A stretch of DNA of 64,000 bases from the NCBI GenBank assembly GCA_964016885.1, contig OZ024749.1, forward strand, positions 7,812,001-7,876,000, written 5' to 3'. This document shows, piece after piece, positions 1 through 61,181 of the stretch. A program made the position numbers and the translations under genes. Below the pieces are notes generated by a model. The model did not search any database. It was not told the origin of the DNA and worked only from the letters and a program-made list of their open reading frames with translations. Numbering within the stretch: position 1 is the first letter of the stretch; every line of letters begins with the position of its first letter. Source of the DNA: Eledone cirrhosa (lineage: Eukaryota).

Positions 1-268
1 CTGGAAACTTAGCTGAGAATAGACTTCCCTGATGACGAAAGGCTTCTCCGTACGTTTCTTCGGAAAGTATGTTTATTCCCTTTCAGAAACTAAATAGTTT
101 GAGTGAAATTTTAGTAAGTTATTTTTATAATTTTATTATTTTACGTCTCTCATATTATTGTTCTGCATCCCCATGCATTGAACCACAACGTTACTAAGAC
201 AAAACCTATATATTTGCTAGCATAAGTATGCATATGTGTGTATATATGTTACTAGATATACTAATTGT

Positions 269-936: not shown

Positions 937-1015
<79 letters not shown>
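269..1015. repeat. (TA)n microsatellite with TACA interruptions
   Basis: Direct reading; the YI/HI-rich ORFs here are artefacts of the repeat. Confidence 0.98.
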
Positions 1016-3615
1016 GGTAGGATAGAAGAGGTCCTTGACAAACTGGACCAGGGTCTCAACATCCTACTGCTGGGAGACTTCAACCTACCAAAGGTCAAAT
1101 GGCCTGAGGGCCACCTCCTCCCTGGAATGACGTCAATAGAACAGAGACAGACGGAATCCCTGCTGGCCCTCACACACAGGCTGTTCATGGAGCAAGCAAT
1201 ACTCCTCCCAACAAGAGGCGAACATGTCCTGGACCTCTGTTTTACAAACAACGAAGTGCTCATCCACAATGTAAAGGTGACACCAACAATTCTCTCGGAT
1301 CATAACTTGGTAGAGCTAATGATATGTGGTCCAAGAGAACCAACAGAGACAAAACCACCAAGAAGCTCCGGGACGCTATCCAGCCTTAACTTCTACGGGG
1401 CTGACTGGAAGAAGATTAAGAGTGAAATCCGGAAGCAAACATGGAGTGCAAACATCGCCACACAAGACACTAACACACAATTTCAACACTTCATGACAAC
1501 GATACACACCATATGCAAAAAGTGTGTCCCGGAGAAAGAGGCAACAGACACAAAAATCTTATTCCCAGAGATAGGAAAATCCTTATGAGACGTAGAACTA
1601 AACTCTCAAACCAGTTGAATAGTCAACAAAACCAAAACAAGAAGGAATCCTATTTGAAACGTGCACTACTTGACACCGAGATTGCACTCAAGCTTTCACA
1701 TGAGAATGAGAGGGCAAGGAAAGCGAACAGGGCCATAGAAAACATTAAAACAAACCCTAAGGCCTTCTTTAAATTTGCAAAAGAAACTGCCTCAGTACAC
1801 TGCAAGATTGGACCACTCTTCCACACGGACGGTTCATTAACCGAAAATCCCCAAGAGATATGTGAAATACTGAACGAACAGTACAAAAGTGTCTTCACAT
1901 GTCCACTGAGGCACATGCAAATAACGAAGCCAGAGGAGTTCTTTGATGCCACAACACTACATCAAGAAATGGCAACCATCAACCACATAGACATAACGGA
2001 GGAGGATGTGGTGTACGCCATTGATGAAATTAGAACAGACTCGGCTGCTGGACCTGATGGATTCCCAGCAGTTCTCCTAAAAATATGTAAGCGGGCCTTA
2101 GCAACTCCACTGAAGATGCTCTTCAGAAGCTCCTTGGCTAGCGGTGTACTACCCAGGGAGCTGAAAGAAGGCACAATATGCCCTATCCATAAAGGAGGTA
2201 GTAGAGCGGAGGCCAAGAACTATAGGCCAGTCTCCCGGACGTCGCATATCAGTAAGGTCATGGAGCGAGTCGTCAGAAAGAAACTAATCACTTTGCTCGA
2301 AGAAAATGACCGCCTGACTAGCACGCAACATGGCTTCCGCCCAGGAAGAAGCTGCCTTACACAGCTGCTACATCACTACGACTGGGTACTGAGACAACTA
2401 CTAGACAGCTCACATGTAGACGTGATATATCTTGACTTTGCGAAGGCCTTTGACAAGCTCGACCACGGAATGATATGTCACAAACTACACGGACTCGGCA
2501 TAACTGGAAAAGTAGGTGAGTGGCTGTATGGCTTCCTAAGGGACAGAAGCCAGGCAGTCGCAGCAAATGGGGCCCTCTCGAGGGAAACACCGATAACAAG
2601 TGGGGTGCCTCAGGGGACAGTCCTGGGGCCACTACTGTTTTTGGTGGCTCTCTCGGACATGCCCTCTGTGGTGCATGCAACAACATCCCTCACTAGCTAT
2701 GCTGATGACACTAAGGTAGCACAGGCAATCAAAAACCCGGCTGACGCTGCCCTCTTACAGCAGGATCTGGATGCCATATACAGATGGGCCGAAGAAAACA
2801 ACATGCAGTTTAATGCTGGCAAATTCCAAGCCCTACAATACAAACCTGCAAACACAAACACAAATATAGCGGAACACAGCTACACAGGACCAGGAGGGAC
2901 CGATATCCCCGTGTCAAAATCGATACGAGACCTGGGCATAGACATGAGCGATGATGCATCTTTTTCTTCACACATCATGAAGGTGGCGACAGCATGTTGA
3001 CGATTCGCTGGCTGGATCTTGAGGACTTTCATTACAAGAGATCGAGACACCATGTTGACACTGTGGAGGACTTTTGTCCTAAGCCGCCTGGACTACTGCT
3101 CCCATCTGTGGTCACCCCATAGTGTCAAACTAACCACTGAGCTTGAGGCAATCCAGCGAAGCTACACGAAGAGGATTGCCAAGATGAGGGAGACAAGCTA
3201 CTGGGAGAGGCTGAAGGAACTGAACCTCTACTCCTTGGAGCGAAGACGGGAGAGATACGCAGTGATCTACATGTGGAAAATCCTGGAGGGACTAGCACCA
3301 AACTTTGGAATTGGGAGCTGGACCAACCGTCGAACAGGACGTCACTGTGTAGTGCCAAAGTTCCCGTCTTCCACATCTAGAATAAGGAGCAGGTATTGCA
3401 ATAGCCTGGGATTCAAGGGCCCTCAACTCTTCAACAGGCTACCGAGGCATCTGCGAGACTTGCATGACGTGGAGGTGGATGTCTTTAAGAAACATCTCGA
3501 CACCTTGTTATCCAGGATCCCGGATGAGCCCACAGCAAGACACGAGGGAAACCTAAGGGCAGCAGCAACAAACTCCCTCCTACACCAGTGGCCAACCTAT
3601 ACAGGCTGGAGATAA
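1016..3615 (+). pseudogene. Disrupted APE-RT ORF2 of LINE family 1
   Basis: ORFs 1127-1588, 1513-3000 and 3019-3615 are collinear. There is a frameshift near 1540 and an in-frame TGA at 2998-3000 (likely CGA>TGA). Confidence 0.9.
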
Positions 3616-6378: not shown

Positions 6379-6423
6379 AATATTGCTGATGAGATGTAAC
6401 AACATCGAAACTAGTTCAATATT
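6379..6423 (+). ncRNA. Type I hammerhead ribozyme (intact core)
   Basis: AATATTG-CTGATGA-GATGT-AACA-ACATC-GAA-ACTAGT-T-CAATATT: 7-bp helix I, 5-bp helix II, palindromic helix III, GUU site. Confidence 0.88.
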
Positions 6424-7112: not shown

Positions 7113-10100
7113 CTAAATATAGACGGTGCTGCACAGTTTTTTGGGCCAGTGGACCCTACGACCTGAACGGGTTGTGGTCTTGTAACGTGGCGATGGTGGT
7201 GGTGTAGGGACAGGCGATGATGGTGGATCAGGAACCGTCGTTCGCTCAACAGGCAAATACGAAGGGGTTCGTGGATCAGGAACCACAGCGTCCGTATCAA
7301 GGTGCGCCTGCTTAAGCCTGTCTAATGTAACTGTCACCCTGGACCCCTTAATATCTAACGTGAAATGCTTAGCCGTGCGCGCTAAGACACGGTAAGGTCC
7401 AGTGTAAGGCTGTGTGAGCGGGGGCTTCACCGTATCATTCCTTACAAAGACATGCGTCCACGAGGCAATATCCCTCGGGACAGCAGTCTTGACAGATTGT
7501 TTCCTAGTGTCCATTGGCGGCAAATCCTGGAAATAGGAGCACAAACGGGACACGTAGGAAGCGTGATCTTGGGCATCAAGATCGATAGGGGCAAGCATTT
7601 GCCCGGGCAACGTCAGAGGGGCACCGTACAGTACTTCGGCCGGTGAAAATCCAAAGTCGACCTTCACCGTTGACCGAATCCCTAGTAGCACAATAGGGAG
7701 GTACTCGCTCCAATGCGCCGAGTCCATTGAGGCCATTAAGGAGGCCTTCAGTTGGCGGTGAAAACGCTCCACCATACCATTCGAAGCGGGATGGTATGCC
7801 GTAGTTCGAATGCGTTTAGCACCAATTATTTTTGACAGCTCGAGGAAAAGGCTCAACTCGAACTGTCGTCCACGGTCGGTAGTTATTGTGGATGGAACTC
7901 CATAACGAGAGATCCATCCAGACACAAGAGCACGTGCTGTTGTCTCCGCGGTGATGTTTTTCAAGGGGATGGCCTCAGGCCATCTCGAAAAACGGTCAAT
8001 GACGGTAAGTAGATAAGAAAAACCATCGCTGACAGGCCAAGGTCCCACTATGTCAATATGAATATGCGAAAAACGCGCATCTGGGTTAGCAAAGGTACCC
8101 AGGGGAGCCTTGACGTGTCAATGGACCTTTGATCTCTGGCAAGCGACGCAGGAACGGCACCAAGCAGCAATTTCACGCCTCATATTTGGCCAGAAAAATC
8201 TAGCTGATATGAGCTTTGCTGTGGCAGAAGATCCTGGATGCGAGATACAATGTAATCCCAGAAACACGGTCCGACGATGATTCTCTGGAACGAAGGGCCT
8301 AGGCACGTCCAAAGAGACGTCGCAGAGAATTTGGCCAACTGCAGTCGACAGAGGCAAGTATTTCATCTCGCAATTCGCAAACTCAGGCGATGTGACATCC
8401 AATGACTCAAGGGGAGGCTGATCCGCAGCCAAACGAGTCAGATCTATGTCAGAGGGTGACGAGATCGCTGTCACGGGTAAGCGGGACAAAGCATCGGCCG
8501 CTGTATTTAGTGAAGCCGGAATGTGCTGGATATCACTCGTATATTGCGAGATGAAATCAAGGTGTCTCGTCTCTCTGGGCGAATATTTATCCGCCTTCGC
8601 TCTCAAAGCAAAAGTCAATGGTTTATGGTCAGTGAGGATAGTAAATTGTCTACCCTCTAGCACATGTGAAAAATGTTTCACGGCCAAATAGATGGCTAAA
8701 AGCTCTCTTCCAAAGGTGCTGTAGCGCGTCTCAGCAGGATTTAGCTTTTTGGAAAAAAACTCCAGCGGTTGCTGGTAACCATTGAAGTTTTGCTGTAGTA
8801 CTGCGCCCACAGCGATATCCGATGCATCAACACAAAGCGTTAGCTTTGCACCGGGTACCGGATGAGTCAGTAACGAAGCATTAGCCAAAACAGTTTTGGC
8901 GTGCTGAAAATCAGCAAGTTGAGTGTCTGTCAAAGAAATATCTTTGTTCTTCCTCCGACAATTTTTCAAAATTTCTGTCAGGGAGAAGAGCAACTTGGCA
9001 CAATTTGGCACGAAACGCCTATAAAAGTTAACCAGACCTAAGAACTGGCGTAACTGACGTAGTGAGGTCTGTGGAGGCAAATCCTCTATGACCTTAACTC
9101 GCTCAGGCCGGGGTCGAATTCCGTCAGCATCGATGACGTGACCCAAGAAAGTCAGTGACTCAGCGCCAAAAACACATTTGGGTGCATTAAGCTGCACGTT
9201 ATACGCCTTCAATCGGCGGAAAAGAAGATTCAAATGGTGCGTATGCTGCTCTGGAGAAGAACTAGCAATGAGCAGATCGTCAATATAGGTATAGACGAAA
9301 TCGAGGCCGCGAGTAACCTCATCCATAAACCGCTGAAAAGTACTAGCAGCATTCCTTAATCCGAACGGCATAGTCAAAAACTCGAAAGACCCAAATGGCG
9401 TAACTATAGCCGTTTTTGGAATGTCACTTTTATGGACAGGAATTTGATGGTACGCACGAATTAAATCCAGTTTGGAGAATATCTTGCATCCCTGCAACGA
9501 AGACGCAAAGTCTTGCAGATGAGGGATAGGATAACGGTCCGGTACCGTTATCGAATTCAGGCGTCGATAATCTCCAGTAGGTCTCCAATCGCCATTCGCT
9601 TTCGGTACCATGTGTAATGGGGACGCCCACGGGCTCGTGGACGGACGAATAATCCCCATTTGCAGCATATGATCAAATTCTGATCGTGCTGCTTTGAGTT
9701 TGTCCGGAGGCAAGCGACGAGGGCGAGAGAAAACGGGAGCACCAGTTGTAGATATGAAGTGCTCCGTGGTATGAGTAGGTTCATCAAATCGAAAATTCCC
9801 CTGTGTCAGTTGCGGGAACGAGTTCAACAACGCATGGAAAGGATCACCGGTGTTAGCAAGAAAAAATATCGGGCTAACCGTTGGGACTCCTGCTGCCTTG
9901 CCAACAACAGTTAATCCCGTGATGCCATCAATTAGGCGTTTACCACGAAGGTCCACCGTCAATGAAAAATGGTGGAGAAAATCCGCGCCTAGAATCGGAT
10001 ACGGCAAGGCAGCGACAGTAAATATCCATTTAAACTCGCGCCGCAGATTACGAAACTGCAAAGGTAACGAGATTTGTCCGAAAGTTCAAATCGGCGAACA

Positions 10101-10304
10101 ATTTACTGCTTGCAACTCAATAGGCGTCTCAGGGGGAGTCTCCTTCATACAACACACAGGCCATACGGAACAAGCTGCACCTGTGTCAACCAGAAAAGCT
10201 CTACCTGACAGCAGGTCCTCAATGAAAAAGTGGCGGTTAGATGTTTCGCAGAGCGCACTATCCGCCGTTAGTGACTCTGGTCGTCTTTTCCCTCGTAAGC
10301 ACAA
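7113..10304 (-). pseudogene. pol: pol: protease, RT, RNase H, integrase; two in-frame stops
   Basis: FLVDTGAA; [21 protein letters not shown]; DASD..RELLAI; HPG..C..C; [22 protein letters not shown]; GPY. TGA stops at 10086-10088 and 8118-8120. Confidence 0.95.
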
Positions 10305-11046
10305 GGAGGCCTACAACGGGCGGCTTTCTTACCATATCTTTCATGGTAATAACAATATGTTGTTCCTGGTGTGTTGGAAGGGCCACGGTGGCGAGAAGTT
10401 GAATAACGTCGAGAACGGCTCCTCTGCTGTCCAAAGGAACTGAATTCCGTGCACAACTCCGCCATTTGACGAGTCATGGCTTCCATAGTGGTGATTAATT
10501 TGTCATCAGACGCTGATGAGCGTGATTGAGGAAGAGAAGAGGAAGCAACGTACTTTGGCTTCGAAGTGTCTCTCTTCGTCACCTCTACAATTTTGTCAGC
10601 AGAGACAGCAATGTGATCCAGGGTATTCACCTCTAGCATATGGGCTAGGATCGCCTGTACCTCTTGAGGTAGGCGAGAGAAGAACAATTGCTTCAGTAAA
10701 GGGCTATCCTGATCTTGGGAGCGCTCAAATCCCGCAAATGCCGGAGAAAAGCGGTTGGGGTCCTGTCACCTAATCGTTCGTCCTCGATCAGTGACCGAAA
10801 ACGACTCTCTACCGACTTACAATTCCTCCTCAAAATCTCGCCCTTCAAAAACTCATACGTCAAGTCAAAGGGGGGGGGGTCTGTAATTAGGTATTGGACC
10901 GAATCTGCTAGATTAGGGGGAAGGCCGCTAATCAGTACAGCGAGGCGCTGGTCAGATTCGGTCTTACAGACCGTAAAATACGCCTGTAACTGGGCAAACC
11001 ACATTTTAGGTTTTCCAGTAAAGGCGGGCAAATGTGGTACATTCAT
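10268..11046 (-). pseudogene. gag: gag (frameshifted near 10720)
   Basis: LPAFTGKPKMWFAQLQAYF, LGDRTPTAFLRHLR, FFSRLPQEVQAIL, CYYHERYGKKAARCRPPC. Confidence 0.88.
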
Positions 11047-11922
11047 GTCAACTTTTAAAATCAAAACAAATATATACATATATATCGAAAGAGCAATTAA
11101 TGCACCCTTGTACAGTGAAAAGAGAACAGCCAATATTGAGAAAAAGTTAACGGGCAAAAAGAAACCGACATTCAAAACATAAGGAAATATTCAAAATACA
11201 TAAAATACAGATATATATCTTTTAAAAAAAAATGTTTCTTTCAACGTCTGTCCCCTCGCGTTGCTTCAACGAACCAGCCAAATCAAATAAGGTAAAAAAG
11301 AGGAAGAAAAAAAATGTTGTTTTTTTTTTTAAATATATCCGCGTTGGATATCAACAAAGGTAGCCAGTGGCTAAAAATCCCTTAGAAAAAGGTAAGGCAT
11401 GTATATCCCCATGCGGGGCAGTTATGTTCACAAAAAAAAGTTTAGTCTCTTCTCTCTTGATCAGTCATGGAACACACACGCAATTCAAAATATGTGTCCG
11501 TCACAAAACTGGGAAGGAACGCAACGCCACCTTGGAAAAATACACTTTTTCTTTTTTCTTCTGTAAGTTGCGAAAAAGTTGGCAACGGAAATGGAATATT
11601 CAAGTGAATAAAAAAAAGTTGCTCTAAATTATCGACACGAATGAATCGTTTTGATATTTCCGATGTGTGGTGGTTTGCGTCGGTAAGGATATGAAGCTGC
11701 CACTCACTATTCCCTGTTTTGGTCAGGGGTTAAACAATGTTGTCGCTGCTGATGCTGCTGTCGTTGTTGTTGTCGATTGTAGCAAAAAATCTTTTGAAAT
11801 ACTACTAACTTTTCGATAATTTTAAAAGGAATATTTTTTATTTTCACAAGTTGCAAAAAAAAAAGGCCGACAATGTGGCAATAAAAGTTCAATTGATGAA
11901 AAAGAAGGGCTGCGTTAAATTC

Positions 11923-12211: not shown

Positions 12212-16490
<4,279 letters not shown>

Positions 16491-38040: not shown

Positions 38041-38171
38041 ATTTCGGATATATTTATATATATATATATATATATATAAGCAAAGGGATATTTAATTTGT
38101 TGGTAATTCAGCAAATATATATATTTATATCTGATTCGAAGCACTCGACAGATTTTCTGTAGTATAATATC

Positions 38172-38537
38172 AATGATATTAATAAATGGAAACTATATTT
38201 ATAAAACCATATTTATTCTATTATATATTTCAAGGGTACCAAAACTTTGGTACGCTCTCATCAGATAAAATACAAAGTTTGTTTTATAAACATTGACATA
38301 TCCAGGAACGAGATCTTAACGGTTCAAATTTTAACTGGATAGTCTATCAAGTTTTACCTGGATAGACTATCCAGGTAAAACTTGAACCAATAAGATCTCG
38401 TCCCTGGATATGTCAATATTTATAAAACAAATTTTGTATTTTATCTGATGAGACCGCACCAACGTGTCGGTACTCTTGAAATATATATAATAGAATAAAT
38501 ATGGTTTTATAAATATAGTTTCCATTTATTTAATATC

Positions 38538-38540
<3 letters not shown>
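38172..38540. mobile_element. Family C-related palindrome with diverged arms, each with an HHR-like core
   Basis: CTGATGA-GAGCGTACCAAAGTTTTGGTACCCTT-GAAATATA (minus, ~38220-38272) and a variant at 38445-38490; central hairpin at 38348-38385. Confidence 0.75.
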
Positions 38541-40917: not shown

Positions 40918-41797
40918 ATTGTTATACTTGGGGACGGTCATATTTGCGTAATATTGCCAGAATTAATAACAGAACACACTCACTGTTTGGTTGGTTTTCG
41001 CTTCTCGCTGTCTTTTATATCTGCGATCTAACTTACTCGGTAACATAGACAACATAGAAATTAGAATAATATCTAAACATAGGAATGACCCAGCAGATAG
41101 GCAAATCAGAGAGGCCAGTGAAATAGAAATTTAGAGACCAAAGCTAAACAGAATGAATGAGTGGAACAACAACAACACCCAAACAAAAAACACTGACCTA
41201 AGAGAAGTATAAAAAAGTAAATAAAATAAAATAAAATAAGATAAATAAATACATACACAAGCACAATAACAACAAGCACATAAACACACACTAGTCACCC
41301 AGCAGACACAACACTATACACACTAGTCACACAGCACACATAACACTATGCACACACGCAAACGCATGCGCAAAGAAGACAAAATAAAATAAGATAAACA
41401 AACAAGCAAATAAATAAATAAATATATAGACAGACTGAATAAAAAATGGCGTAAACATACAACACAACAGGAGGAACAAAGAATATAACACCACTGACGA
41501 TGTTGCAGATGTGCAACGAAAGATTTATGTAAATTATGTAAACTATATATATGTGTTTGTGTCTATATTGTATCTGTATTATTTTAGACCGTCGGTCAGT
41601 CAATGGCAACATTGAGGACCGAGTGAGTTAGATCGCAGATATAAAAGACAGCGAGAAGCGAAAACCAACCAAACAGTGAGTGTGTTCTGTTATTAATTCT
41701 GGCAATATTACGTAAATATGACCCTCCCCAAGTATAACAATATCTGTTTCGACACACGATTTCACATAAAAAACCTCGGTAAACTAATTCATCGCCG
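40916..41797 (+). mobile_element. Fold-back element related to family A, with an HHR at 41491-41530
   Basis: Arms ~40916-41041 and ~41618-41743; CTGACGA-T-GTTGCA-GATG-TGCAAC-GAA-AGATTT-A; shares its 3' terminus with family A; partial copy at 28005-28112. Confidence 0.8.
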
Positions 41798-41798
41798 C

Positions 41799-42827
<1,029 letters not shown>

Positions 42828-45800
42828 TTAGAAATTGGAATAAATGCTCTGAAATAGCGATATATATGTGAATATAGACATAGAATATTCGAAAATATTC
42901 TGTATGTTTATAATAAACATTTTGAAGACCTAATCGCTATAGAATAGAATACGTCACGTATTACAATTAGATTCTCGATAAAAGCAAGGGAAGTAATCTA
43001 CGCGTTTCATTCTTGTTAGAAATCGTCAGGACTACATATCCAGTGCTTTTATCGAGAATGACACAGCTAGAGACTTATAGAATACTTAGCTGTGTACAGG
43101 AACTGGTTTGAAAGAGCGGTTGCCGGTCCGGCAGAAATTAGAAATTGGAATAAATGCTCTGAAATAGCGATATATATGTGAATATAGACATAGAATATTC
43201 GAAAATATTCTGTATATTTATAATAAACATTTTGAAGACCTAATCGCTATAGAATAGAATACGTCACGTATTACAATTAGATTCTCGATAAAAGCAAGGG
43301 AAGTAATCTACGCGTTTCATTCTTGTTAGAAATCATCAGGACTACATATCCAGTGCTTTTATCGAGAATGACACAGCTAGAGACTTATAGAATACTTAGC
43401 TGTGTACAGAAACTGGTTTGAAAGAGCGGTTGCCGGTCCGGCAGAAATTAGAAATTGGAATAAATGCTCTGAAATAGCGATATATATGTGAATATAGACA
43501 TAGAATATTCGAAAATATTCTGTATGTTTATAATAAACATTTTGAAGACCTAATCGCTATAGAATAGAATACGTCACGTATTACAATTAGATTCTCGATA
43601 AAAGCAAGGGAAGTAATCTACGCGTTTGATTCTTGTTAGAAATCATCAGGACTACATATCCAGTGCTTTTATCGAGAATGACACAGCTAGAGACTTATAG
43701 AATACTTAGCTGTGTACAGGAACTGGTTTGAAAGAGCGGTTGCCGGTCCGGCAGAAATTAGAAATTGGAATAAATGCTCTGAAATAGCGATATATATGTG
43801 AATATAGACATAGAATATTCGAAAATATTCTGTATGTTTATAATAAACATTTTGAAGACCTAATCGCTATAGAATAGAATACGTCACGTATTACAATTAG
43901 ATTCTCGATAAAAGCAAGGGAAGTAATCTACGCGTTTCATTCTTGTTAGAAATCATCAGGACTACATATCCAGTGCTTTTATCGAGAATGACACAGCTAG
44001 AGACTTATAGAATACTTAGTTCTAACAAGAATGAAACGCGTAGATTACTTCCCTTGCTTTTATCGAGAATCTAATTGTAATACGTGACGTATTCTATTCT
44101 ATAGCGATTAGGTCTTCAAAATGTTTATTATAAACATACAGAATATTTTCGAATATTCTATGTCTATATTCACATATATATCGCTATTTCAGAGCATTTA
44201 TTCCAATTTCTAATTTCTGCCGGACCGGCAACCGCTCTTTCAAACCAGTTCCTGTACACAGCTAAGTATTCTATAAGTCTCTAGCTGTGTCATTCTCGAT
44301 AAAAGCACTGGATATGTAGTCCTGATGATTTCTAACAAGAATGAACGCGTAGATTACTTCCTTGCTTTTATCGAGAATCTAATTGTAATACGTGACGTAT
44401 TCTATTCTATAGCGATTAGGTCTTCAAAATGTTTATTATAAACATACAGAATATTTTCGAATATTCTATGTCTATATTCACATATATATCGCTATTTCAG
44501 AGCATTTATTCCAATTTCTAATTTCTGCCGGACCGGCAACCGCTCTTTCAAACCAGTTCCTGTACACAGCTAAGTATTCTATAAGTCTCTAGCTGTGTCA
44601 TTCTCGATAAAAGCACTGGATATGTAGTCCTGATGATTTCTAACAAGAATGAAACGCGTAGATTACTTCCCTTGCTTTTATCGAGAATCTAATTGTAATA
44701 CGTGACGTATTCTATTCTATAGCGATTAGGTCTTCAAAATGTTTATTATAAACATACAGAATATTTTCGAATATTCTATGTCTATATTCACATATATATC
44801 GCTATTTCAGAGCATTTATTCCAATTTCTAATTTCTGCCGGACCGGCAACCGCTCTTTCAAACCAGTTCCTGTACACAGCTAAGTATTCTATAAGTCTCT
44901 AGCTGTGTCATTCTCGATAAAAGCACTGGATATGTAGTCCTGATGATTTCTAACAAGAATGAAACGCGTAGATTACTTCCTTGCTTTTATCGAGAATCTA
45001 ATTGTAATACGTGACGTATTCTATTCTATAGCGATTAGGTCTTCAAAATGTTTATTATAAACATACAGAATATTTTCGAATATTCTATGTCTATATTCAC
45101 ATATATATCGCTATTTCAGAGCATTTATTCCAATTTCTAATTTCTGCCGGACCGGCAACCGCTCTTTCAAACCAGTTCCTGTACACAGCTAAGTATTCTA
45201 TAAGTCTCTAGCTGTGTCATTCTCGATAAAAGCACTGGATATGTAGTCCTGATGATTTCTAACAAGAATGAAACGCGTAGATTACTTCCCTTGCTTTTAT
45301 CGAGAATCTAATTGTAATACGTGACGTATTCTATTCTATAGCGATTAGGTCTTCAAAATGTTTATTATAAACATACAGAATATTTTCGAATATTCTATGT
45401 CTATATTCACATATATATCGCTATTTCAGAGCATTTATTCCAATTTCTAATTTCTGCCGGACCGGCAACCGCTCTTTCAAACCAGTTCCTGTACACAGCT
45501 AAGTATTCTATAAGTCTCTAGCTGTGTCATTCTCGATAAAAGCACTGGATATGTAGTCCTGATGATTTCTAACAAGAATGAAACGCGTAGATTACTTCCC
45601 TTGCTTTTATCGAGAATCTAATTGTAATACGTGACGTATTCTATTCTATAGCGATTAGGTCTTCAAAATGTTTATTATAAACATACAGAATATTTTCGAA
45701 TATTCTATGTCTATATTCACATATATATCGCTATTTCAGAGCATTTATTCCAATTTCTAATTTCTGCCGGACCGGCAACCGCTCTTTCAAACCAGTTCCT

Positions 45801-46028
45801 GTACACAGCTAAGTATTCTATAAGTCTCTAGCTGTGTCATTCTCGATAAAAGCACTGGATATGTAGTCCTGATGATTTCTAACAAGAATGAAACGCGTAG
45901 ATTACTTCCCTTGCTTTTATCGAGAATCTAATTGTAATACGTGACGTATTCTATTCTATAGCGATTAGGTCTTCAAAATGTTTATTATAAACATACAGAA
46001 TATTTTCGAATATTCTATGTCTATATTT
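42828..46028. repeat. Inverted tandem array of a 310-bp hammerhead-containing unit (retrozyme-like)
   Basis: Period 310 (42831, 43141, 43451, 43761); inversion at 44019/44020; then ~6.5 copies in the opposite orientation (period 308-310). Confidence 0.95.
44624..44666 (+). ncRNA. Type I hammerhead in the 310-bp unit; also at 44316, 44934, 45243, 45553, 45863 (+) and 42993, 43303, 43613, 43923 (-)
   Basis: GTAGTC-CTGATGA-TTTCT-AACA-AGAAT-GAA-ACGCGT-A-GATTAC, with helix I extended by ATTCTCGATAAAAGCA/TGCTTTTATCGAGAAT. Confidence 0.87.
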
Positions 46029-47412
<1,384 letters not shown>

Positions 47413-47782
47413 GAATTGGTGCTCTATATATACATTCATATATATATATAGATATATATATATATATATATACATATATCTATCTGTCACAATAAATTAA
47501 CGGAGCCATAGACTTTCGTTATTCCGTGTCAATAATGTATATATATAACACAATGGCGTTAGAAGTAAAGTATCGAAAATTTATAGTGTAGTCATCAGTA
47601 CGCAAGTGACCAGAATAATGATCAATCAATAGAATTAATAGAGGAGATTCTTTTAATTATAATTTATGGTGATTGGTAAATATTGTGGTCATTTGCATTA
47701 GGTTGACAGCATTTTAAATTTAAATATATATATTCAGGTGATATATTTATGTGAATATATATATATAGAGAGACAAACATAC

Positions 47783-49450: not shown

Positions 49451-52400
49451 TGAATGAAAATCATGCTACTCAATTGCACACATCAGCTGTAACAAACCCA
49501 AACTCGCAGAAATTCGATACAGTAATGAATGAAAGCAGTTTTTTAGGCATAATCTACCAACTACAACAACAGCTGTACTCCATACAGATGACTCAGCAAA
49601 ACCAGGCAACATTGATACAAAGCCTGACACCTGGACTTACAGGGCACATACAACAAATACAGACAGCCCAGCAGACCGAATATCCAGTCAGCACAGTCCC
49701 AGCAACTACAACAGTCTTGCCATCAATAGGGCAGATGTATCCGGTACAACAAGCATAATAACAGCAAATATCCAGGGTCTTTATCCAAAAACAAAACAGT
49801 GTAAAGTCCCTTTCTTGGAAGAATTAGCAACAGAAAACAACTCCAAAATAATTGGAATTACTGAAAGTCATCTCAACGAAAACATCCGCAACAGCGAAAT
49901 CACAATCAATGGATTCAACATCTTCAGATGTGATAGACAAGGCAGATCCCATGGGGGCGTTATCATGTATATCCATGATACCTATGCATGCATAGAACTT
50001 GTCAATGAATCAAATGCCTACTGGAACCTGCTGTGCATAAAAAATCATCCAACTTAATTCAGTTGTAACAATAATGTACAGACTGCCAAACAGCCCAACA
50101 TTATCCTTCACAGAGCCACTGACAAAGCTCCAACAAATTCTGGGAAACATGGCGAGTCCAATGCCAGACATTATCTTCCTTGGTGACTTCAACTTCCCTA
50201 ACATCATCTGGCCACATGGACACATACTAAAACTGGGGACAAAAGCTGAACAAATACAGGCAGCCAAACTGTTGGAAGTCACAGAGAAATTATACCTCAA
50301 ACAAATGATGACAGAAGCAACTAGAAATAATAATACGATCGACTTGGTTTTCACCAACAACGAGGACACGCTATTTGACATTCACTCAACCCCAACAATC
50401 CTTTCAGACCACAATATTTTTGAAATGCATTTACACATTGGTAATGAGCCCAATGCCACAACTCTTAAACAAAAGGACATGCCAAAGCTATGCAGGTATG
50501 ATTATCACCAGGCAAATTGGGAAACTATTAACAACCAGTTACAAATCATTGACTGGGATCTCTACCTTACTGGGCCAGATAAACACAAGAAATTCTTAAA
50601 CAAGATCGAAGAAATATGTGCAAAAAATATTCCTCTTAAGAAAACCAAATCCACAAAAAAACCTGTACCACCGGAGCGAAAGATCCTGATGCGCAAAAGG
50701 TCAAGACTAAGAAACAAAACATCTAAGCTGGCATCAAAACATGAACTACAGAAAGTCCTTGACCAAATATACAGATTAGAAGACAATCTAAAACAACACT
50801 ATGATGAAGAACGTAACAATGCAGAAAAGAGAGCCATAGAAAACATCAAGAAAAATCCAAAATGTTTCTACAGTTTTGCAAAGAAATACTCGAATACCAA
50901 GTCAACAATAGGATCTCTCCAGAGACAAAATGGGGATGTAGTGAATAACCCTATTGAAATGGCAGAAATGTTGGGTCAACAGTATAAAAGTGTCTTCAGT
51001 GAGCCATCTAAAACCATGAAGATCCATGACCCAGGAGAATTCTTCAAGGATATCGACCATACTAAACCTACCCTATCCGACATTGATTTCAACCCAGAAG
51101 ACATAGAAAGAGCCATAGACAAGCTCTCCATGCACTCGGCTGCGGGGCCTGATGGTTTCAATGCCATGATACTTAAAAACTGCAAGGTACAATTGTTGAA
51201 ACCCCTTTACATGATATGGAGGGAATCTATGGAGAATGGCAAAATATCAAATACATATAAAGAAGCACACATAACTCCAATACATAAAGGGGACAGCAAA
51301 TCAAAACCAAAGAACTACCGACCAATCTCACTGACATCACACATTATCAAGGTCTTCGAAAGAATAGTTCGTGGAAAACTGGTTGAGTTCCTGGAATCCA
51401 ACAATCTGATGAATTGCAACCAGCATGGATTCAGGTTAGGTAGATCATGTCTTTCCCAACTACTGGCACACCATGACCAAATCCTAGAAAATCTAGAGAA
51501 TGGATACGACACAGATGTTATTTACCTTGACTTTGCCAAGGCATTTGACAAGGTAGATCATGGCATCCTGGGACACAAACTTCGAAAGCTAGGAGTAGGA
51601 GGAAAAGTTGGTACATGGATACAAGAGTTCCTTACAAATAGAACTCAAACAGTCACTGTGAATGGAACCCATTCAACACCATCACCTGTAACCAGCAGTG
51701 TTCCTCAGGGTACAGTACTCGGCCCAATCCTGTTTCTCATCCTCATCTCTGACATAGATGAAGATACAACCAGCAACGTCTCATCCTTTGCTGATGACAC
51801 CAGGGTCATAAGACAAATCAAAGACGAGGTGGATACAGAGGCCTTACAAAAGGACCTGACCACCATATACAAATGGCAGGAAACAAACAACATGTTGTTC
51901 AATGATAAGAAGTTTTAACTAATTCGCTACGGAACAGATCAAGATCTGAAAAATACAACAAACTACAGAAACCCATCCGGACAACAAATAATGGAAAAAC
52001 AGTGTGTGAAAGATTTAGGCATCCACATGGGAACCAGCCTAAAATTCAGAGAACACCTTGACTCAATCTGTCTTACTGCAAGAAAGTACAGCGGGTGGAT
52101 CTTGCGCACCTTCAAATCAAGAGATACCTCAACAATGAAAACCCTCTGGAACAGTATGATACTTCCGAGGATTGACTACTGTTCTCAGTTGTGGTCACCA
52201 ACAACAAAGTGCCAACTATCTAAGATGGAATCGCTCCAAAGAAATTTTACCTCATACTTCTCAGAAACGAGGGACCTGGATTATTGGCAAAGACTCAAAA
52301 CCTTGAAGATGTACTCAATAGAAAGAAGATTTGAGCGATACCGAATTATATACATTTGGAATATGATAGAGCAAAAGGTGCCAAACTTTGGTATCAAAAG

Positions 52401-52782
52401 CTACCATTCACTGCGCCACGGAAGACGCTGCCAGCTACAACCAATCAACAGAAAGGCTGGCCAGGCAGCAAAAACCCTGCGAGAGTCAAGTCTGTTGGTT
52501 CGAGGAGCACAACTATTCAACTCCATTCCGGTACATGTCAGAAATCTATCAGGATGCAGTGTGGAATCATTCAAATTGCAGCTGGATAGATACTTAAGCA
52601 CCATTAGAGATGAATCCCATCTCCCAGGATATACATAACGAGCACAAACTGACTCAAACTCGCTCCTACACATGTCAAAATTAAACAGAGAATACAACCT
52701 GGCAACCACACCAGACTCTGAGGGTGGAGTCTTCGACTTGGCCTGAGCATGGACTCAAACTCAAATGAAATGAAATGAAATG
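49450..52782 (+). mobile_element. CR1-group LINE (family 3): end of ORF1, whole ORF2, 3' UTR, (GAAAT)n tail
   Basis: Q-rich ORF1 tail at 49450-49758; APE motifs ANIQGL, GITESHL, RCDR..HGGV, GDFNFP, SDHN; RT motifs [24 protein letters not shown]; MYSIERRFERY. Confidence 0.95.
49735..52638 (+). pseudogene. APE-RT ORF2 with one frameshift (~50030) and one stop (51916-51918)
   Basis: ORFs 49815-50057, 50074-51918 and 51991-52638 are collinear. Confidence 0.9.
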
Positions 52783-54644: not shown

Positions 54645-55488
54645 AAGTTGTGCATGGATACTTGAGGCGTAAAACACAGACCATAAAGGGGATAAACCAC
54701 TCAAAAAGCCTGGCATGGAGTTCCGACAAGTTTATGACATCACACCTTGAGGGATATATCTATGCAATACAGGAACAAGAACTCCCTACCAAATATCTGC
54801 TGCACAAAAGAGGAGGGCCAGCAGCTGACAATAAATGTAGGCTATGTAAAACAAAGATCGAGGATGTAAGCCACATTGTTGCCAGCTGCGAAAGAATGTC
54901 ATCTCGCTACTACCTCCCCATGAGACACGATGGGATAGCTAGAACCATCTGGAACGCACTTCGGAAAACAAAATCAACAACAAACGAGGAAGAATATATT
55001 GAGACAGATGGCACTAAGGAATACTGGTGGAACCTGAAAATAAAAACTGCCACCAAATTAAAGCACAACCGGCCTGATATTGTAGTTTGGGACCACACAT
55101 TGAAAACGTGTTCTGTTGTGGAGATCAGCTGCCCACTTGATGTAAACGTTGTCAGAAAAATACAGGAGAAGGAGGACATCTACGGACCATTGATGAGGAG
55201 TTTACAAATCCAGTATCCAAGATACACCTTTAGCTTCATACCCATCATTATTGGTGCTACGGGTTATATACCAACCCGCTTGGACCAAAGTATGACTGAA
55301 CTTGGATTTGCGGACAAAAAGCGCAGCTCCCTAATTCATAGTCTACAAATGGCTGCGATAGCTGGCACCTTCAAAATTTGCAAAACATTCTTGCGATTCA
55401 AGGGATGACAATTTCTTTTCTTTTACAACCTTGCCACCAGGAAGGTGGCCGGTCAAAAAATATACTCAAAATTAAGAGAAAGAGAAAA
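54645..55488 (+). mobile_element. 5'-truncated R4/Dong-like non-LTR retrotransposon (CCHC plus RLE endonuclease and 3' UTR)
   Basis: Open frame 54650-55408: AIQEQ, CRLC..E.VSHIVASC, RHD, HNRPDIVV..VEISCP..EKEDIY, PIIIGATG. Confidence 0.88.
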
Positions 55489-60696: not shown

Positions 60697-61181
60697 AGTT
60701 GAAAAAAATGAAAACGAAATTTCATTTCTCACTCTTAGTATGGCACTTACTTAAATGTAAGTATGTATGTATACGTACATACATATATGTATACGGACGT
60801 ACAGTAGCATGCATATATATATATATATATACATACAGGTACACATACATATATGCACGCATCAGTTTAGCGGACGCTTATTATAACGCCGCTTTGTTCG
60901 TTTGTCAACAAACTGAATAGCCTGAATTTATGCCATACGGTGTTAAGGCAACCACGTCACCTTTTTGTTCAACACTGACACAGGAACGATGTACTAGTTT
61001 CAAGCTTGTTAGCTATCATCAGCACCGTTTACCCATCTGCCAGATAGTTGAACGTTCGAAAGAATATACTTTCCTTATGAAAATTAACGGCTGAGCAGCC
61101 TAATTTGCATATTGAGTGAGTTAAATCGGTCAGGCATACCGAAATCGATAAGTTGAAAAAAATGAAAACGAAATTTCATTT
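60697..61181 (-). mobile_element. 454-bp monomer plus 31-bp terminal redundancy, HHR-bearing (retrozyme-like)
   Basis: AGTTGAAAAAAATGAAAACGAAATTTCATTT occurs at 60697-60727 and 61151-61181; internal HHR. Confidence 0.78.
60985..61029 (-). ncRNA. Type I hammerhead ribozyme
   Basis: Minus strand: AACGGTG-CTGATGA-TAGCT-AACA-AGCTT-GAA-ACTAGT-A-CATCGTT. Confidence 0.87.

Follow-up and report, generated by a model that had tools for sequence, protein, structure and literature searches.

A dispersed 310-bp family of probable hammerhead retrozymes in Eledone cirrhosa, whose head-to-head insertions in (TA)n tracts point to copying by a Penelope-like element

A double-hammerhead model exists for newt satellite 2 and for viroids. 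Metazoan non-LTR retrozymes, as described in PMC7229834, are built from tandem units of 150–450 bp, each with a type I hammerhead, a GC content below 50% and no open reading frame (ORF); they reach thousands of copies and co-occur with Penelope-like elements, or PLEs (PMC7229834; 10.64898/2026.07.22.740005). The return of animal retrozyme circles to the genome is a stated open point in both papers: PMC7229834 proposes reverse transcription on circles to give tandem cDNA, with PLEs as candidates and the primer left open (a DNA target or a small RNA), and Li et al. 2026 (10.64898/2026.07.22.740005), who report phylogenetic co-occurrence with PLEs, describe the mechanism as still to be elucidated. 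EN+ PLEs, those of the Hydra clade above all, resemble the present elements: they include (TA)n-preferring families (Hydra and cephalopod Naiad) and are found with an inverted, 5'-truncated copy and a tail of 30–40 bp, often at one end only (PMC8557442; the one-ended tail and inverted copy are described likewise in PMC3846280); they too carry a type I hammerhead, and show larger target duplications where these are visible. For an Anolis PLE studied in vitro, PMC11167929 reports cutting of AT-rich DNA, with both strands cut and extended, and a tail bounded by two internal RNA start sites of the reverse transcriptase (RT).

The 310-bp family described here, first seen as an array in the window (the whole 64,000-nucleotide stretch of DNA that was analysed), shows at the level of sequence every feature by which non-LTR retrozymes are recognised: tandem 310-bp units of 34% GC, no ORF, intact consecutive hammerheads and dispersed copies. 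This supports the retrozyme reading proposed earlier from the sequence alone (hereafter the sequence-only reading). Unlike the retrozymes of PMC7229834, it forms head-to-head, two-armed arrays with fixed ‘long’ and ‘short’ 3' ends targeted to (TA)n—the main text of that paper has 0 occurrences of ‘inverted’, ‘microsatellite’ or ‘target site’—and it is known here from DNA alone, whereas theirs are known with RNA. It differs from EN+ PLEs in lacking an ORF and in having two arms that are both multimers of the 310-nt unit, and no sequence parent was found for it. Nor does it match the LTR retrozymes of plants, which have a type III hammerhead in each of their two LTRs and duplicate 4 bp of the target, since its topology is type I and its units are tandem. 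The accessible literature yielded neither a retrozyme from a cephalopod nor any retrozyme array with two arms, although the supplements of 10.64898/2026.07.22.740005 and PMC7229834 may list cephalopod repeats.

Tandem Repeats Finder reports a 310-bp period with 3.8 copies at 42827–44019 and 6.5 copies at 44020–46038 (99% matches), the same copy numbers that the sequence-only reading had given for its near-identical minus and plus units. The two arms are reverse complements of each other, their units are more than 99% alike, and arrays of the family pass straight into (TA)n with no LTR; the location within a (TA)n array with TAAA variants was also read correctly, tracts of this kind flanking both arms. 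TAAA polarity is identical to the left and right of the array, as expected if the insertion split one tract. No frame of at least 120 amino acids lies within the array, in agreement with the unit having been called non-coding, and the frames listed at its edges are read-through of the TA repeats.

Table 1. Coordinates of the array, its flanking tracts and its reference unit (unit positions numbered from 44661, the start of the reference monomer).
Feature	Position	Strand	Remarks
Left (TA)n/TAAA tract, target site	41799..42826	.	+ strand: 47 TAAA, 1 TTTA
Left arm	42827..44019	-	3.8 units, reading leftward; inner (5') end at unit position 220
Left arm outer (3') end	unit position 170-172	-	‘long’ end, carries tail
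Head-to-head junction	44010..44030	.	arms abut at 44019/44020, 5' to 5'; zero overlap, zero added bases
Right arm	44020..46027	+	6.5 units, with unit position 288 at the inner end
Right arm outer (3') end	unit position 128	+	‘short’ end
Right (TA)n/TAAA tract	46028..47406	.	+ strand: 89 TAAA, 2 TTTA
Reference monomer	44661..44970	+	310 nt, 34% GC; spans the stretch between two predicted cuts
Tail interval	44790..44832, unit positions about 130-172	+	bounded by the two 3' end sites, short and long; given for the reference unit
Intact type I hammerhead	44934..44976	+	helices I, II, core, palindromic helix III; predicted cut after 44970
16-bp stem extending helix I, 5' strand	44910..44925	+	pairs with unit positions 13-28

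The hammerhead consists of helix I (GUAGUC/GAUUAC), the core elements CUGAUGA and GAAA, a helix II of UUCU-AACA-AGAA closed by a U.U pair at 10.1-11.1 and a palindromic ACGCGU, with the predicted cut at GUA^G. This is the anatomy given by the sequence-only reading, which had assigned one hammerhead to each copy. Eight of the ten complete cores are in fact intact, five of them consecutive (a non-LTR retrozyme calls for at least two complete motifs in succession), and one further copy is cut off. The predicted cuts of the intact cores fall after 44660, 44970, 45279, 45589 and 45899 on the plus strand and after 43929, 43309 and 42999 on the minus strand; in the copy at 44351 GAAA is short of one A, the copy at 43619 carries G12>C, and the copy at 44042, the first on the plus strand, is truncated ahead of CUGAUGA. 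A Rfam search, proposed earlier as a check, returned solely sub-threshold matches to Hammerhead_HH9 on seven copies (19 bits against a gathering score of 52, E about 0.5), so that identification of the hammerhead rests on its anatomy together with covariation.

Folding of the monomer gives -72.5 kcal/mol (z -4.4; 0 of 100 shuffles equally stable). The 16-bp extension of helix I is present in the predicted fold, as had been claimed, and across related families 93% of its cells are paired, with 9 of the 16 pairs changed on both sides; two of the hairpins previously listed with 1-nt loops fold with 3-nt loops instead. When two genomic units are folded without constraint, the minimum-energy structure, at -109.9 kcal/mol, is a double hammerhead with every core base unpaired, some 18 kcal/mol better than a pair of single hammerheads (-92.0 kcal/mol), supporting in silico the earlier suggestion that the palindromic helix III may act in dimers. 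On this modelling the unit looks dimer-dependent for cleavage, whereas most invertebrate retrozymes are described as cleaving efficiently as monomers (PMC7229834). The single base pair plus palindromic tetraloop of helix III is shared with newt satellite 2 and with axolotl retrozymes (HHR_Amex1 having a palindromic 1-bp helix III and HHR_Amex2 the U.U at the base of helix II; PMC7229834), for which better cleavage would by analogy also be expected from the dimer; the present family differs in its mollusc host, and in having relatives in the host genome with a helix III of 4–5 bp. Li et al. report that 8 of 9 predicted Xenopus retrozyme dimers failed to cleave in vitro (10.64898/2026.07.22.740005). 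A simple pattern search turned up neither an A box nor a B box of Pol III.

Older relatives, families B, C and C2, are 69–82% alike to the 310-bp family over parts of the unit, and have the 3' module and the TA junction in common with it. In an alignment of 28 related hammerheads, picked from 54 distinct ones, 89% of cells pair and 22 of 33 pairs are changed on both sides, a score matched by 0 of 500 shuffles—counts that are inflated by relatedness, the shuffles taking no account of kinship; controls in which the alignment was slid drop to 39–52% paired. The tertiary pair 3-8 is C-G in 16 of the 28 and U-A in 11, and helix II is only 76% paired. Natural U3-A8 cores occur in abundant relatives of the C3-G8 family (L061, L085 and L206-L230; families B and C2). 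Because the close relatives keep 4–5 bp in helix III, against one pair and a palindromic loop in the 310-bp family, the minimal form looks derived. Within the family itself, none of 12 inherited hammerhead variants changes the core or helix III, whereas 9 of 23 changes confined to single units do so (p=0.015). Helix II is hit by one of the 12, and the inherited variants fall at N7, in loop 2 or at 10.1 (U.U to A-U), or retain helix I through wobble.

The genome encodes a molluscan hemocyanin, one unit of which scores 497–498 bits against single units of the squid and octopus chains 6r83 and 1js8 and 385 bits against the best unit of the gastropod protein 3j32, in keeping with a cephalopod host. 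Across the assembly (2,996 Mb in 1,796 contigs) the exact 32-nt hammerhead core occurs 5,507 times, against 0 for the control; this is a lower bound, since common haplotypes vary within those 32 nt. Joins to (TA)n, counted on the plus strand alone as the reverse-strand counts are redundant, number 798 for long ends and 942 for short ends (a few of the short-end matches being internal variants), and doubling them leads to an estimate of about 1,600–1,900 insertions genome-wide. Full-length matches, 31 in number, are spread over many contigs at 96–100% identity. Both the dispersal that had been predicted, as opposed to a single locus, and the recent origin are thereby supported, and on this sequence evidence we regard the retrozyme family as real, young and dispersed. 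At one locus, L085, an array lies at a non-TA site with an 11-bp target duplication. Runs X1, X5 and X6 each yield one 340-nt contig (310+30) that forms a closed cycle at a depth of 10–15, with no flanks. We do not count these as an RNA circle, a tandem DNA array yielding the same cycle; nor were they counted as horizontal transfer, although the runs carry three organism labels differing from that of X2 (summed depth near 2e5), low-level carry-over of a very abundant repeat appearing to be the simpler explanation.

The outer ends of the arrays obey a rule. There are two classes of 3' end: short, at unit position about 128–139 (a position blurred by the unit's own CATATATAT), and long, at 165–172; over the resolved two-armed arrays they span 124–140 and 158–173, respectively. 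We fetched 115 arrays, of which 96 are two-armed (91 resolved, with 5 running into a gap or off the stretch) and 19 single-armed or truncated; every one of the 91 resolved arrays combines a long outer end with a short one, the array in the window having its long end to the left and its short end to the right, and 14 of the 19 single-armed or truncated arrays are short-ended. When ends on C1:1-97.5 Mb were paired by position, blind to their class, 39 of 39 head-to-head pairs proved to be long with short (p=1.8e-12; 24 ends unpaired), these arrays being largely contained in the 91. Junctions between the arms overlap by 1–5 nt in 48 of 97 cases, with 1–2 nt overlaps partly due to chance alignment; a few junctions lie at long stems, and some have short insertions. 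One of them, at L088:2599-2870, holds an unrelated 272-bp sequence caught between the two arms, with no match in the PLE loci examined. The sequence-only reading saw the inverted array in the window, and missed that inversion is a rule of the family and comes with the tail signature of PLEs.

A PLE enzyme is suggested above all by the resemblance of these ends to that signature, in which the interval separating the two end classes is likened to the two-start-site tail described for Anolis; the argument is one from anatomy. Whereas the tail is called ‘optional’ in EN+ PLEs, no resolved two-armed array here has it on both arms or on neither, which sharpens its description to one per two-armed insertion. 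More broadly, the anatomy of the insertions points to target-primed, probably rolling-circle, copying from both strands by a PLE. We give next to no credence to the inversion being an assembly fold-back artefact or the outcome of LINE-type twin priming: the junction in the window is not bridged in short-read contigs of X2–X4 (a weak point, as such contigs fragment in repeats), yet neither process accords with the invariable pairing of one long and one short end, with arms of unequal length, with junction positions that are not mirrored or with the lack of a poly(A) end.

Sequence variants within the arrays bear upon the form of the template. Of 95 arrays with at least three units, 73 have variants that 85% or more of their units share, and in 61 of 62 testable arrays these fixed variants are common to both arms; 23 substitutions are private to a single array, the haplotypes are nested, and the longest arm, of 45 units, is clonal. 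The inner ends are spread evenly across the unit (chi-square p=0.25), with 5 of 192 lying within 5 nt of the predicted cut against 6.2 expected. A linear monomer as template would allow no multimers, and from a linear multimer that had been cut one would expect run-off at position 1. A linear multimer left uncut accounts for the ends, yet provides no means by which a new variant could become fixed in every unit. Multimers, inner ends and the fixation of variants are all compatible with a circular monomer, and the clonality across both arms of multimeric arrays supports the earlier proposal of rolling-circle cDNA insertion.

The strongest competitor to a circle keeps the same PLE enzyme and has it copy an uncut, linear, multimeric transcript of a source array, the ribozyme being a passenger derived from a PLE terminal repeat. 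It explains the tail, the TA target and the uniform inner ends equally well, and the Anolis PLE, for which hammerhead cleavage was dispensable in vitro, used unprocessed RNA (PMC11167929). Mosaics of two haplotypes in unit order also occur, in at least three arrays: 276G is present in two of six units and in seven of seven units of L247, L096 contains a two-unit block of another haplotype, and L273 has a single odd unit; one template per array is thus not absolute. Set against this reading are the private fixed substitutions and nested haplotypes, for which it offers no step fixing variants across both arms, the 45-unit clonal arm, the avoidance of the core by inherited variants, and the covariation at 3-8 and in helix II among relatives. 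We consider it unlikely.

Considerably less likely still is that short PLE-type insertions were later expanded at the DNA level, through unequal crossover, slippage or extrachromosomal rolling circles. Tandem arrays are able to homogenise via DNA recombination, Li et al. (10.64898/2026.07.22.740005) have put forward local amplification for retrozyme satellites, and the two-unit mosaic blocks could be gene conversion. Private variants are nevertheless the same in both inverted arms, though many of the parts next to the junction have no sequence overlap, and the arrays are more than 99% homogeneous and very young, with ends and a junction typical of a single insertion event. The spectrum of changes also speaks against expansion as DNA: A:T>G:C transitions make up 12 of the 23 inherited private changes, compared with 37 of 169 single-unit changes (p=0.004), an enrichment which suggests passage outside DNA replication.

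Among the private changes A>G (7) and T>C (5) do not differ significantly (p=0.26); with two recurrent sites included, the counts become 15 and 5 (p=0.007). These sites, unit positions 20 and 276, are stem positions with a 5' U (276 lying in UAG), and A>G recurs there on at least four haplotype backgrounds. In L247 the A>G switches within an arm, with L273 and L306 likewise among the loci of recurrent A>G. Such changes may be A-to-I editing written into DNA or tolerated G.U wobble; as tolerance of G.U in stems predicts an identical bias, write-back of editing stays a lead.

As to the enzyme itself, we found 10,595 candidate GIY-YIG PLEs, of which 150 were scored, and 3,821 matches to a Hydra-clade RT motif, with about ten families among the first 30; four ORFs that were checked have the Hydra-clade motifs RW[KR], DK[TS], CxCx5C and a C-terminal YIG. 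In one Hydra-like family (L161) a hammerhead lies directly upstream of the ORF, 184 nt before the first Met, and the terminal repeat copies match the 310-bp family at 26 of 28 nt across the core and helix II; they too have TA-flanked long and short head-to-head ends, but with a tail of 72 nt against about 35. The 3' module of the 310-bp family is on no ORF-bearing locus among 50 GIY-YIG, 70 Hydra-motif (these including repeats of the same element), 30 family C and 13 variant loci—a small sample of the motif matches and GIY-YIG candidates—so that a Hydra-like enzyme is a lead only; insertion into (TA)n is listed both for Hydra and for cephalopod Naiad families (PMC8557442). A loose-end motif from X2 has 0 matches in the assembly, the 13 examined of 44 matches to a divergent-continuation pattern are older non-coding relatives, and the 5' flanks of 16 single-armed arrays together with one 272-bp insert gave no consistent partner. 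The array as an autonomous PLE is ruled out, there being no RT/GIY-YIG ORF in the unit or the arrays.

Taken as a whole, we think it probable that the family is a non-LTR retrozyme copied in trans, from a circular 310-nt RNA, by a TA-targeting PLE. An array would be transcribed into a multimer, within which adjacent hammerheads are predicted by folding to pair through their ACGCGU palindromes as a double hammerhead, releasing 310-nt monomers. By the example of other retrozymes, a host ligase would then circularise the monomer, and the circle would be left largely uncut, since a lone helix III has 1 bp. The ends of the insertions suggest that the endonuclease of the PLE would cleave a (TA)n tract on both strands, with RT priming on each 3'-OH at two fixed RNA sites about 35 nt apart; from the clonality and the length of the arms, each cDNA may circle the template a variable number of times before, in a last putative step, the two cDNA ends are joined, mostly by microhomology of 1–5 nt. 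The ends of the family suggest that priming takes place on the (TA)n DNA target, and they pinpoint two positions in the RNA as the expected starts of synthesis, making a direct and short in vitro test possible and offering PLE biochemistry a 310-nt cis-element.

A more specific version, which we put forward tentatively and hold to be somewhat less than an even prospect, is that each array records one event: a PLE dimer cuts both strands of (TA)n and two RTs roll round one 310-nt circle from the two fixed sites, with no conventional second-strand step and with A-to-I edits sometimes written into the genome. If this were true, some 1,700 events of PLE priming on a circle would be preserved in the genome, each as the record of a single molecule, and PLE integration would have a minimal substrate in the 310-nt circle.

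Further elements lie in the window. At the far end of the TA tract that bounds the array on its right there is a minimal head-to-head insertion of about 40 bp (47407-47450) of the related family B, consisting solely of a long end (minus) and a short end (plus). The left TA tract is adjoined by the 3' end of a relative of another hammerhead family, E (41720-41798), so that the tract as a whole has been targeted at least three times. Family E itself is found at 15311-16390, TA-flanked, with the long end at left (minus strand) and the short end at right (plus strand); its 252-bp x3 repeat is a fold-back chain (cores at 15566, 15818 and 16070, minus; 15695, 15947 and 16199, plus), and its tail contains a possible ORF start. 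Two LINE-like RT elements and an LTR retrotransposon-like pol/integrase region, recognised from their frames, occupy 977-3615, 49533-52638 and 7113-11190, and a non-LTR 3' end bearing zf-RVT lies at 54647-55408. Type I hammerheads are also present as an inverted, TA-flanked pair at 38078-38540, and, with a palindromic ACUAGU helix III, at 6386 and 60989-61022, the latter forming tandem units of about 480–510 bp in L071.
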